Shown: positions 738 to 22,703, numbered from the stretch's first letter. The stretch is DNA of 64,000 nucleotides from Dehalococcoidia bacterium (GCA_040882355.1 JBBEBM010000004.1:112482-176481); one strand, 5' to 3'. A program made the numbers and translations. The notes: generated by a model not told the origin, from the sequence alone.

Positions 738-1121
738 TCAAACACGACGATCCCGAATGATGCTCCTCAGCCTGAGCGCTTCGACTGGAACGAGGCGCTC
801 AGCGACCGGGTCGACGGCAAGGAGCAATCCTTGAAGTGCGTCAGCCCCCAGCAGGGGTTCATCGCCCTCCTCGCCGATGGCGACGATGCGGATCGCGGAG
901 GTCCCGTCAAACCGGATCCAGGTCTGCCCGATCTCCTGGTCGAAGGTTCGGCCGTCCGCAAGGCGGAAACGGGCTCTTCGTAGCGGCTGGACGCCCAGCC
1001 GTTCTAGCATTGACCGTGGAACCACAGTGTAGGCCGATCCAGTGTCGACGGGCAGGGAGACCTTCTCCCAACGCTCTCCCTGCGGGTCGCCCACCTCGAC
1101 CTCGACGCTAAACGTGCTCAT
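738..1121 (-). CDS. Retropepsin-like (clan AA) aspartic protease domain protein
   Basis: 127 aa with VDTGSAYTVVP (a DTG active-site-like motif) and the overall pattern of bacterial retropepsin-like stand-alone proteases. Its start overlaps the stop of the upstream FAD-subunit gene by 4 nt (translational coupling). Confidence 0.6.
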   Translation of the reverse strand: MSTFSVEVEVGDPQGERWEKVSLPVDTGSAYTVVPRSMLERLGVQPLRRARFRLADGRTFDQEIGQTWIRFDGTSAIRIVAIGEEGDEPLLGADALQGLLLAVDPVAERLVPVEALRLRSIIRDRRV

Positions 1122-1996: not shown

Positions 1997-2060
1997 GGCG
2001 CGCGCCTATTGTAGCGCACCCCTACCCGTACGTGAAGGTTAGGGAACGGTTACACGGGCC

Positions 2061-3050
2061 TTGACGAGGCTCCAGCCGATAAACTACAGTAGGGAACCCA
2101 TGACAGGACAAGACCCAAGCTGGTTTGAGTTTACGGTGTACGATACCGAGGGCGATGGCATTGAGATTCCCAAACTCGCCCGCCTGCTGGAAGACATCTC
2201 GGCAGCCTTTTACTCGATAGCCCGTGCCAAGATCGGAGCGGCAGGGTCCCGGGCCGGGCGACGAACCATCGCTGAGGAGACGATCGGCGGAGCCAGAGTT
2301 CTCCGCGTTTTGCCAGGGAGCGCCCGAATCGAGTTGGCCCCTCCCGTAAGTGCAGCCCAAGCCCAGCTTCCCCTCTTGGACGAGCCTACGGCCGACGACG
2401 TCGCATTCGAGTTCTATGAAGAGATCCGTAATATCGAGGCAGGCAGACCGGCTGCTGAGGAACGCTGGGATGTTCGGCGGCGTCTCCGAACGGTGATTGA
2501 GCACGCGGCCGAGATTGGGTCGCGAGCCGAGATCAAGTATCGGCCCCTGGTGCGCGGGCCCAATTTCCCACAGGACGCCGTTCTGATAACCAGTTTTCGA
2601 ACCAAGGAGTTGCCGTCTGAGGCGCCTGTTCGTCGTTCGAACCGTAGTCGGCGCGTCTCTGGTCACGCGTACATGGTCGACGTGGAACCTGGTAGACAGC
2701 GCCTGAGGCTGAAGCTACCGGATGGCAGAGACCTCACCGTCGAGGTCGATGGGGCTTTGGCCGCAAGGATTCCCGCCGCATTGGATCATGTGGTCGAAAT
2801 CGATGTCCAGGAGGAATTCGAAGGCGAGGTCTCCACCAGTCGGATGGCCCGCAATATCGACATCTTGGCATCGTCTGGCCGCGGAAGCGACAAGCCGCCG
2901 AAGTCTGTAGAGGAGCTTGAACGCGAACAGAATCTCCCTGCTGAGCGGCCGGACTATGTCTCACTGGCAACCACGATTTGGGAAACGGAGGATGAGGTGA
3001 CCCAGTTCGAGGAGCACATACGACAGGTCCGTCAGGCCAGTACAGCCTAG
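2061..3050 (+). CDS. Hypothetical protein, no recognisable domain; upstream partner of a PIN-like gene in a lower-GC islet (possible alternative start at 2097)
   Basis: 329-aa ORF whose GC (~58-60%) is lower than the flanking ~70%. It is 11 bp upstream of the PIN-like ORF on the same strand. No motif recognised by eye. Confidence 0.5.
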   Translation: MTRLQPINYSREPMTGQDPSWFEFTVYDTEGDGIEIPKLARLLEDISAAFYSIARAKIGAAGSRAGRRTIAEETIGGARVLRVLPGSARIELAPPVSAAQAQLPLLDEPTADDVAFEFYEEIRNIEAGRPAAEERWDVRRRLRTVIEHAAEIGSRAEIKYRPLVRGPNFPQDAVLITSFRTKELPSEAPVRRSNRSRRVSGHAYMVDVEPGRQRLRLKLPDGRDLTVEVDGALAARIPAALDHVVEIDVQEEFEGEVSTSRMARNIDILASSGRGSDKPPKSVEELEREQNLPAERPDYVSLATTIWETEDEVTQFEEHIRQVRQASTA

Positions 3051-3061
3051 CCTCCAAATCG

Positions 3062-3505
3062 ATGGCGGACTACGTCGTTGCGGATACTACCCTTTTCGCC
3101 CATTTGACCAAGGCGAGTCGGCATTCCGCATCCTACGAGCGAATGCTCGGTGGACGCCGCCTCGCGGCTTCCTTCCAGACGCCACCAGAGCTACTCAGTG
3201 CTGGCTATGGTGTCAAGAGACAACAGCGGGTTGACGATCTTCTGATCGTCACTCTGAAGCTACCGCATTCAGAGGCGACCGACGTTTGGTATGGTCGGGT
3301 CGCCGAACGGCGGAGGGCACTGAAGAAGTGGGCTCAGCCCGGTAGCGACGCCTCGGATGCCGACATGTGGATCATAAGCTCCGCGCTAGAATACGGGTTC
3401 CCACTGTTCAGCCACGACAAGCAGCAGGTCCAGCTTGGCAGGGCCATGGGCCTCCGAGTGCTCACCAGTCTCGACGGGCTAAAGGACGATAATCCCACGA
3501 TCTAG
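3062..3505 (+). CDS. PIN-domain-like putative ribonuclease
   Basis: 147 aa. N-terminal VVADTTLF (the conserved Asp of PIN), and C-terminal DADMWIISSALEYGFPLFSHDKQ, which resembles the VapC D-x-D ... hh-T-x-D acidic-quartet region. Confidence 0.5.
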   Translation: MADYVVADTTLFAHLTKASRHSASYERMLGGRRLAASFQTPPELLSAGYGVKRQQRVDDLLIVTLKLPHSEATDVWYGRVAERRRALKKWAQPGSDASDADMWIISSALEYGFPLFSHDKQQVQLGRAMGLRVLTSLDGLKDDNPTI

Positions 3506-3539: not shown

Positions 3540-4064
3540 CTAGCTCTGAAGTTGAGCGTGCTCCATCAGCCAAGCGACGTGCTCCGCGTAGTGCTCGTAG
3601 GTGTTGCCGGCGATCCACTTCACGATCGGCGCGCCGCTGTCCTTGCCAGGCTCGTTCGGCTGGTAATGAGAGTACGTCTTGAACAAGTCCGCGTCGGTGA
3701 GCGCGGCGAGCAGATCCTGCTGCGTCTGGCGGAACTCGGCGAGCACGTCCGCCAGCGATAGGTCCTTGCCGTGCTCGTGGACGGCGGCGTTGATCCCGTC
3801 CGTTCCGGCGGTCAGGTACGTCCGCTCATCCACGCCCATGGCCTCGTAGCGCGGCCGGCGTCGCAGCAGGGCGGCGATTCCCCGCTCCCATGCCGCGAGG
3901 TGAGCGAGGTGGTCCTTCACCGACCAGCCCTCGTATGGGCCTGGCGCGACGAGCTGCGCATCGGTCAAGCGGGAGATGGTCTCGTCCAACGCCGCCCGCG
4001 CCGCTTCGATGCGCTCGATCAGCGCCGTCTTGTCTTGCGGCAGGCGCTGCGTGAGGTCGGTCAT
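3540..4064 (-). CDS. DinB/ClbS-like four-helix-bundle protein (DUF1706/DinB_2 family)
   Basis: 174 aa. WSVKDHLAHLAAWE ... YEHYAEH resembles the ClbS/DfsB and DinB_2 metal-binding histidine pattern. Confidence 0.65.
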   Translation of the reverse strand: MTDLTQRLPQDKTALIERIEAARAALDETISRLTDAQLVAPGPYEGWSVKDHLAHLAAWERGIAALLRRRPRYEAMGVDERTYLTAGTDGINAAVHEHGKDLSLADVLAEFRQTQQDLLAALTDADLFKTYSHYQPNEPGKDSGAPIVKWIAGNTYEHYAEHVAWLMEHAQLQS

Positions 4065-21984: not shown

Positions 21985-22374
21985 TCAACCGGTCAGCTTG
22001 ACGGCGCGCAGGCCGGCCACGCGGTCGAACTCCGGGTCCTTGTGCACGAGCTCGGCGTCGTGCATGAGCGCGAGCGCCGCGATCCAGGCGTCGGCGAGCG
22101 AAAGGCCGCCGCCCGCCTTCACTTCGGCGGCGCGGCGGCGCCAGGCGGGCGCCGACTCGACGATCGTAACGGGCCACGCCTCGACTAGTCTGATGGCGGC
22201 GAGCGCTTCCTCAGCCGGGGCGTCCCGCAAGACTCGGTAGTGGAACTCCATCAGGGTGATGAACGCTAGGAAGACCTCGTTGCTGTCATCCAACAACAGA
22301 CCCGTGACGGTCTCGTAGCCGGGCTCCTGGAAGAAGACGGCTAGGACTGCGGACGTGTCGAGTACGTACGCCAA
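21985..22374 (-). CDS. vapC: Type II toxin VapC (PIN domain ribonuclease)
   Basis: 129 aa. MAYVLDTSAVLA at the N-terminus, a conserved Glu (LMEF), then LADAWIAALALMHDAELVHKDPEF: the canonical VapC acidic residues. Confidence 0.85.
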   Translation of the reverse strand: MAYVLDTSAVLAVFFQEPGYETVTGLLLDDSNEVFLAFITLMEFHYRVLRDAPAEEALAAIRLVEAWPVTIVESAPAWRRRAAEVKAGGGLSLADAWIAALALMHDAELVHKDPEFDRVAGLRAVKLTG

Positions 22375-22703
22375 CGGCGCTCCTCGTCGGCTTCGAGCTC
22401 GCGCTCGCGCACCCGTTCAGCCTGTCGCTCTTTCATGAACTTCTCAAAGGTGTAGCCGGTACCCTTCAGGAAGCCGACGGCCGCCTGTACTGGGTTCTTC
22501 GGTATTGGCATCACGTGGATCACCCCCTCGCGTACTTCCCAGCGCAGGCGGGTGCCGTGCTCGATGGCGAGCGCGTCCCGGACCTGCTTCGGGATCACGG
22601 TCTGGCCGCGCTCGTAGACGCCGGAGGTCTCAGGCTCGGTGTGCCCGGGCGTCTCCTCCGGCGGAGAGCCGGCGTCGTACTTGGCGCGTCTCTTTCGTGC
22701 CAT
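22341..22703 (-). CDS. vapB: Antitoxin VapB, AbrB/MazE/SpoVT-type DNA-binding
   Basis: 120 aa. VIPKQVRDALAIEHGTRLRWEV is a SpoVT-AbrB swapped-hairpin motif. Immediately upstream of vapC, with a 34-nt overlap. Confidence 0.7.
   Translation of the reverse strand: MARKRRAKYDAGSPPEETPGHTEPETSGVYERGQTVIPKQVRDALAIEHGTRLRWEVREGVIHVMPIPKNPVQAAVGFLKGTGYTFEKFMKERQAERVRERELEADEERRWRTYSTRPQS

Follow-up and report, generated by a model that had tools for sequence, protein, structure and literature searches.

A conserved gene pair of a Dehalococcoidia bacterium joining a VapC-type PIN protein to a predicted three-part partner, a putative multidomain antitoxin

We analysed a pair of adjacent genes on a 64,000-nucleotide stretch of DNA from a Dehalococcoidia bacterium (GCA_040882355.1 JBBEBM010000004.1:112482-176481). 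This stretch is called the window below, and coordinates given without a locus name refer to it. The initial annotation had described here two co-oriented open reading frames (ORFs), a large protein followed by a PIN-like nuclease, as a candidate toxin-antitoxin (TA) or defence pair. Both reading frames are indeed present, at 2061-3050 (+) and 3062-3505 (+), with a gap of 11 bp (3051-3061) between them. Judged by the homologues found, 69 for the large protein (down to E = 1e-199) and 43 for the PIN protein (down to E = 1e-91), both are real genes. The large protein is 100% identical to WEE64_00850 at NCBI, a hypothetical protein of 316 aa from a metagenome-assembled genome (MAG), and the PIN protein is identical to the deposited hypothetical protein WEE64_00855 of 147 aa. 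The Dehalococcoidia MAG contig from which the window is taken has 181,818 bp. The length of 329 aa that had been given for the upstream protein counts from TTG 2061 and has to be corrected. The true start is most likely ATG 2100, because the identical NCBI protein has 316 aa, because nearly all homologues begin there in the alignment and because positions 2061-2090 hold a promoter-like sequence, TTGACG-18-TACAGT, whose position is kept in six loci. The features of the locus are the following.

2040-2047 and 2090-2097, plus strand: candidate operator, two copies of TAGGGAAC 50 bp apart around the promoter (speculative)
2061-2090, plus strand: putative sigma-70-like promoter, TTGACG-18 nt-TACAGT, ending 9 nt before ATG 2100 (consensus scan)
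2100-3050 including the stop codon, plus strand: 316-aa partner, putative multidomain antitoxin (identity to WEE64_00850, alignment)
2100-2624, plus strand: predicted N-terminal alpha/beta domain of the partner, residues 1-175 (structure model)
2625-2867, plus strand: predicted OB-fold domain of the partner, residues 176-256 (structure model)
2883-3047, plus strand: acidic C-terminal tail of the partner, residues 262-316 (PPKSVEELEREQNLPAERPDYVSLATTIWETEDEVTQFEEHIRQVRQ), putative PIN-binding or neutralising region (model, stand-alone relatives)
3062-3505, plus strand: VapC-type PIN-domain protein of 147 aa, putative endoribonuclease toxin (profile homology, invariant acidic residues)

The promoter arrangement, TTGAC(G/C)-18-TA(C/G)A(G/C)T placed 9 nt before the ATG, is also found at the homologous loci L001, L007, L010, L004 and L009, so that the six loci are drawn from two different genomic contexts. 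Because the site ends only 9 nt before the start codon, the mRNA of the pair is probably leaderless or nearly so. A second promoter-like site lies back to back with it at 2008-2036 (-) and would serve the divergent cox-like operon; both sites end 9-11 nt before a start codon, suggesting that this organism makes leaderless transcripts. The pair also stands out by its base composition. As had been noted at the outset, its GC content is lower than that of the flanks, with 0.597 against a window mean of 0.675 (sd 0.026), and it is the lowest-GC interval of 1,445 bp in the whole 64-kb window. The GC content at third codon positions (GC3) is 0.65 and 0.69 for the two genes and 0.86-0.95 in the adjoining genes.

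Profile homology identifies the product of 147 aa as a PIN protein of the VapC type. The two motifs from which this assignment had started, VVADTTLF and DADMWIISSALEYGFPLFSHDKQ, are both present, and the assignment itself held up: PF01850 is matched by 29 of 30 aligned family members (best E = 1.8e-11), and the family profile finds the solved VapC of Haemophilus influenzae, 6nkl, with E = 2.5e-7 over residues 6-123. The acidic residues D8, E43, D101 and D119 are invariant in the 30 aligned sequences. These catalytic residues are retained alike in PIN proteins with a large partner and in those with the small partners described below.

In Pfam, NCBIfam, PADLOC and PHROGs the partner has no family, whether the window protein, 33 family members or nine distant members are used as query. 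The best matches below threshold were DUF7801 (E = 0.27) and Veg (E = 0.038), and sequence searches of the PDB with a full-length profile and with a profile of the tail gave nothing significant. Thus the expectation that the large protein is not a member of a housekeeping family was borne out. The related statement that it has no recognisable domain stands for the sequence libraries but not for the structure, since the model contains an OB fold. We modelled the partner with AlphaFold2 from 33 homologues (predicted local distance difference test, pLDDT, 75) and residues 1-178 separately (pLDDT 82; predicted template modelling score 0.82). According to these models the partner is an undescribed protein of three parts: an alpha/beta domain, an OB fold and an acidic tail. 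For the N-terminal alpha/beta domain no confident structural relative was found. The modelled second domain has OB-fold topology and holds the most conserved motif of the family, the invariant SGHAYMVDVEPGRxRLRLKLPDGRDLT; among the OB families of Pfam, SSB and tRNA_anti included, and among PDB sequences it had no match. The invariant R-x-R-x-K strand of this modelled fold points to nucleic-acid binding. The tail of about 55 residues follows after a Ser/Gly/Pro linker and is modelled as three short helices (pLDDT 46-72). Its computed isoelectric point is 4.4 and its net charge -7; for the PIN protein the computed isoelectric point is 9.0.

The pairing of the two genes is near-obligate, as the prediction of a conserved gene neighbourhood had implied, and it reaches well outside this lineage, into hundreds of uncultured bacteria. 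In all 12 close loci the PIN gene lies 10-35 nt downstream of the partner gene. Behind a relative of 27% identity at locus L013 comes a divergent PIN-like ORF of 155 aa with a DxN...D...SHD pattern, and P0193 and P0188 have a PIN gene next downstream. Distant full-length relatives of 300-328 aa keep the same architecture, a motif G-R-L-x-M-x-D-F...R-C-R and a related tail. We scanned metagenomes for this divergent subgroup with one peptide pattern, which retrieved at least 252 relatives, and kept 80 loci. Five of these loci could not be assessed as the contig ends before the downstream gene. In 74 of the 75 assessable loci a PIN or a PIN remnant follows immediately: in 61 loci the ORF that follows is complete and has 100 aa or more (60 matching Pfam PIN, best 6.5e-21, and one matching the PIN-like DUF4411), in seven the PIN is interrupted by the contig end and in six a PIN homologue is disabled by a premature stop or truncation. 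Only one locus has no PIN. The commonest gene junction in the divergent subgroup is a 4-bp overlap (28 of 77 readable junctions); overlaps of 1 bp and gaps of 2-3 nt are also frequent. This tight layout with the antitoxin first matches the VapBC operon as it is classically described (PMC5499597). An accidental adjacency of the two genes, or a large ORF that is not the functional partner of the PIN, has only the missing domain annotation of the large protein in its favour and was rejected as practically negligible on the neighbourhood counts (13 of 13 and 74 of 75 loci, with identities down to 27%), on junctions at which the genes touch or share 1 or 4 nt, and on the tail which small and large partners have in common.

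An exhaustive profile search over 1.84 billion protein cluster representatives yielded 118 relatives among these representatives. Besides full-length proteins they include many proteins of 56-80 aa which consist of a basic N-terminus and the tail and little else, with the consensus PPKSIEELAREQGxxxxxPDYxALAxAVWxTxEExxxFxxxLxxIR. The tail, that is the last ~50 residues, is also found fused to unrelated N-termini, for example DUF1828. The small tail-only genes lie directly upstream of PIN genes whose products are 48-51% identical to the window PIN and keep the catalytic residues. These small proteins are real and complete; at locus L015 the small-partner gene starts 34 nt past the NifU stop codon. 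The large partner and the partners of 56-80 aa, which go with the same PIN subfamily, have nothing but the tail in common. As stand-alone tails sit upstream of PINs of this subfamily, the tail is likely the part that deals with the PIN, a neutralising module, and the other 256 residues would form an accessory module. In a neighbour-joining tree, calculated without support values, the PINs with small partners nest within those with large partners, and all outgroups have large partners. This nesting suggests that the N-terminal 260 residues were lost secondarily in the small-partner systems.

We made two further observations on the tail-only systems. Two tail modules occur in tandem in one small protein, P0156 (119 aa), and back to back on contig L014 (231-548); a duplicated module may bind two PIN protomers. 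Moreover, pairs of a tail-only gene and a PIN gene follow directly after a SufBD-SufS-NifU operon at L015 (3001-3675), L016/L017 (3001-3669) and L018 (3001-3620). A NifU_N gene adjoins the cassette in the window as well, with an identity of only 28-32% to NifU at the tail-only loci. The presence of this PIN subfamily beside loci for iron-sulfur assembly is maybe a coincidence and maybe an old linkage.

At no fewer than six loci an intact partner gene lies beside a PIN gene with a premature stop or truncation; these loci were retrieved via the partner gene, and no search was made for the reverse case, in which the partner would be disabled and the PIN intact. In L086, L089, L090 and L092 the codon of the invariant Trp of the PIN is changed from TGG to TGA (4125-4127 in L089) and the partner is intact. 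Because the same change occurs in four samples of one study, we regard it as a fixed natural toxin-null allele and not as a sequencing error. A Tyr codon is changed to a stop codon in the PIN gene of L053, the PIN gene of L041 is truncated, and at the small-partner loci L016/L017 the PIN gene is frameshifted. That the TGA of the L089 PIN gene is recoded was considered and rejected, as it is a single change from TGG at an invariant Trp and other loci are disabled by different mutations. The recurrence of disabled PINs beside intact partners is a hint that the PIN is the dangerous partner of the pair.

We suggest that the pair is a VapBC-like, type II TA-like operon with a non-canonical antitoxin of three parts, in which the PIN protein is held inactive by the acidic tail. 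We would put the probability of this reading at roughly 0.62. The system could work as follows. Transcription from the sigma-70-like promoter at 2061-2090 would give a leaderless bicistronic mRNA. The 316-aa protein would be translated first and then the PIN protein, whose gene begins 11 nt past the stop codon of the partner gene. The PIN protein would be a metal-dependent endoribonuclease of the VapC type and, by analogy with characterised VapCs, might cut a loop of tRNA or rRNA and thereby halt translation. The flexible acidic tail (residues ~262-316) would fold into the groove of the PIN active site as the C-termini of VapB proteins do. The remaining 256 residues, the alpha/beta domain and the OB fold with its R-x-R-x-K strand, would be dispensable for neutralisation. 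Instead they could be an accessory module that binds nucleic acid and stands where an RHH, AbrB or HTH DNA-binding domain is usual. Such a module could either serve regulation by anchoring the complex on nucleic acid or respond to a trigger by which the toxin is freed.

Several results weigh against this interpretation. Taken alone, the window PIN reaches only E = 9.7e-4 and 20.2 bits with Pfam PIN and misses the gathering score of 23.6. Searches of Pfam and NCBIfam showed no DNA-binding domain of the RHH, AbrB, PHD or HTH kind in the partner. The neighbour-joining tree, as said, carries no support values. Inverted repeats are not in excess upstream of 65 family genes (4.91 compared with 4.89 +/- 0.13 in shuffles), and classical autoregulation at an operator is thus unsupported by the sequences; direct repeats upstream of the 65 genes are only marginally above shuffles. 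The TAGGGAAC repeat occurs three times in 64 kb where 0.44 copies are expected, and two of the three copies are at this promoter; as a direct repeat around the promoter it was seen only in the window, and the syntenic loci do not keep it exactly. No relative was found on the viral contigs of IMG/VR nor, with tblastn and two queries, on the plasmids of PLSDB. In PADLOC-DB 2.0 neither protein has a match at E <= 1. Finally, the pair is retained at one site in at least five genomes beside metabolic genes, which would also fit a domesticated or housekeeping RNase.

The pair could instead function in abortive infection against phages. The N-terminal domain and the OB fold would then sense a phage cue, either single-stranded DNA or RNA or a protein, and release the PIN. 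This would extend the TA-like scheme and is compatible with it. The genomic neighbourhood gives some encouragement. At L102-L104 the pair lies within a type I restriction-modification (R-M) operon next to an ApeA/HEPN gene. The order on L102 (255-5866) is hsdS, ApeA_NTD1/HEPN_Apea, the gene of a distant member of the large-protein family, PIN and hsdM, which is a defence-island context. At L003 an integrase and an M78/DUF4411 module adjoin the family member; at L004-L006 the neighbours are luciferase-like and solute-binding genes. A census of 128 non-redundant flanking ORFs gave 93 different Pfam families, and the only recurrent ones, with 2-5 ORFs each, are R-M S/M, bacteriophage exclusion (PglZ/PglX), AAA_15/21 and mad2/5. 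Multidomain antitoxins with a proposed sensor as accessory domain are also known, for example PanA (PMC10440598). But only about 3-5 of the 128 neighbouring ORFs are defence genes, neither protein is matched in PADLOC, and the neighbours in the window and in the syntenic relatives are metabolic (cox-like, NifU, AhpC). The behaviour is that of a cassette with only an occasional address in defence islands. We consider a role in abortive infection unlikely.

A broader proposal, which we regard as doubtful, is that the N-terminal domain and the OB fold form a sensor or targeting module: phage nucleic acid or a phage protein would bind to it and free the PIN, or the module would bind the RNA substrate of the PIN. 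If the version with phage recognition were true, the family would be an undescribed and widespread abortive-infection system. If the module bound the substrate, neutralisation would be coupled to the availability of the substrate. A tRNA anticodon loop is a candidate for this substrate because a similarity to the OB domains of LysRS and AspRS hints so. In either version VapC toxins would have a new class of antitoxin, a "sensor antitoxin", with a fold not previously seen in antitoxins.

The third possibility is that the two proteins form a stable two-subunit RNase for normal RNA processing or turnover which has no relation to TA systems, the OB protein recruiting the RNA and the PIN acting as catalyst. 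OB folds of such kind typically bind single-stranded DNA, RNA or tRNA anticodon loops. Combinations of PIN with OB or S1 domains are known in RNA-processing enzymes such as Rrp44/Dis3. The position of the pair is also kept across at least five related genomes: the window and L001/L002, L007, L008 and L010 share an arrangement in which a coxS-coxM-like operon is followed by the pair and by NifU-AhpC-methyltransferase genes. For the window, the flanks had been described correctly, with the operon for cox-like 2Fe-2S and FAD subunits upstream and the DinB/DUF1706 gene downstream. Against such an enzyme stand the PIN pseudogenes which recur beside an intact partner, the tail-only partners of 56-80 aa which lack the OB fold beside an intact PIN, and the patchy distribution in varied contexts. 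The pair further diverges faster than its surroundings; among the syntenic genomes the flanking proteins are 68-83% identical, the large protein 53-65% and the PIN protein 58-65%. The GC3 is persistently atypical, with 0.49-0.69 for the pair and 0.85-0.94 for the flanks in each syntenic genome. In our view an RNA-processing enzyme of this kind has only a small chance.

The same comparison bears on the history of the cassette. The initial annotation took the low GC content as a sign of horizontal acquisition. This holds only in part: relatives do occur in several unrelated contexts, but the cassette occupies one and the same position in five or more related genomes and is therefore not recent here. 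A recent acquisition in this genome was rejected, since the locus is syntenic in at least five Dehalococcoidia/Chloroflexota genomes and the GC3 is low in all of them. This persistence is also the reason why low GC is no evidence of recent acquisition in this genome. Either low GC belongs to the cassette as such or its site has been re-seeded repeatedly. The low-GC3 cassette spans 2100-3505 in the window, 6001-7412 in L001, 478-1868 in L008 and 6001-7407 in L010. A low GC3 despite long co-residence could be due to weak expression or codon selection, or else to recurrent replacement.

Some features of the surroundings deserve mention. The DinB/DUF1706 (ClbS-like) gene at 3540-4064 (-) adjoins the PIN gene in the window and is absent in L001, L008 and L010, where NifU follows directly after the PIN gene; its presence or absence is an insertion or deletion exactly at the boundary of the cassette. 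Inside the cox-like molybdoenzyme operon, between the genes of the 2Fe-2S and FAD subunits, lies a gene for a retropepsin-like aspartyl protease of 127 aa (738-1121 (-); PF13975, E = 1.3e-7) with a lower GC3 of 0.72. In the syntenic locus L001 a 354-aa methyltransferase occupies this slot, and at L013 a gene for a 36%-identical protease lies about 4 kb from the distant large-protein homologue. A pair of canonical size, which had been pointed out elsewhere in the window for comparison, is present at 21985-22703 (-) and consists of a 120-aa ORF and a 129-aa PIN-like ORF. The 120-aa ORF has an AbrB-like GQTVIPKQVRDALAI motif, recognised by eye. This pair is an internal contrast to the 316-aa partner.

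If the TA-like reading is correct, a sizeable family which is unannotated in Pfam, NCBIfam, PADLOC and PHROGs would have replaced the head of the antitoxin by about 256 residues, a novel domain and an OB fold. The tail-only partners of 56-80 aa would be a natural control for what the accessory domains add, be it regulation, sensing or coupling to the substrate. The pair would add one more candidate to the modules sought in R-M and defence islands. The reading also offers a working hypothesis for two families of "hypothetical proteins" which are common in MAGs of Chloroflexota and Dehalococcoidia.

VapBC is the largest family of TA systems, and its antitoxins are viewed as small, with a head that binds DNA and a tail that binds the toxin. 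The pair resembles VapBC systems such as H. influenzae VapBC-1 (6nkl), FitAB and Shigella VapBC in several respects. It has a VapC-type PIN with the acidic set D/E/D/D(N), an operon with the putative antitoxin first and a short gap or an overlap of 1 or 4 bp, an upstream protein which ends acidic and flexible like the toxin-binding regions of VapB, and a location in variable genomic contexts. It departs from VapBC in the size of the upstream protein (316 aa, where VapB proteins have ~70-120 aa), in the modelled alpha/beta domain and OB fold which stand in place of an RHH, AbrB, PHD or HTH DNA-binding domain, in a tail for which neither the PDB sequence set nor Pfam contains a matching VapB, and in that palindromic operators are not in excess upstream of the family genes.

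The DUF4411 PIN-like toxins with large Xre-HTH/M78-peptidase partners, listed in the catalogue of the PIN superfamily (PMC5499597), likewise combine a PIN-like nuclease with an unusually large (>300 aa) upstream partner, and one such module adjoins the L003 homologue. Their partner, in contrast, is composed of an HTH and a metallopeptidase, neither of which was found here. With OB proteins such as SSB, RPA, PriB, RecO and the anticodon-binding domain of LysRS/AspRS the OB domain shares only 5-16% identity and no sequence family, and the motif G-H-x-x-M-x-D-x-E-P-G / R-x-R-x-K / D-G-R-D is specific to the family described here. In the searchable literature we did not find any antitoxin of PIN toxins that is described with an OB fold.

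The nearest conceptual parallel, by analogy, are the multidomain PanA antitoxins (Panacea; NetFlax), in which a small region (PAD1, Phd-C or ZFD) neutralises the toxin and a larger domain is proposed to act as sensor or regulator (PMC10440598). In both cases a small neutralising region, here putatively the C-terminal tail, is joined to a larger accessory domain proposed to be dispensable for neutralisation, and stand-alone and fused natural forms coexist. Unlike PanA, the partner described here has no relation in sequence or fold to Panacea/DUF4065 and its accessory part is an OB fold with a novel domain. PanA is also hyperpromiscuous across toxins, whereas the partner is tied to PIN alone in the loci seen. 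Taken together, the pair agrees with VapBC in operon layout and in its PIN protein and differs from it in lacking a small antitoxin headed by an RHH, AbrB, PHD or HTH domain. Provided that the PIN is toxic and that the partner neutralises it, the pair is a new multidomain variant of type II VapBC and not a new kind of system.

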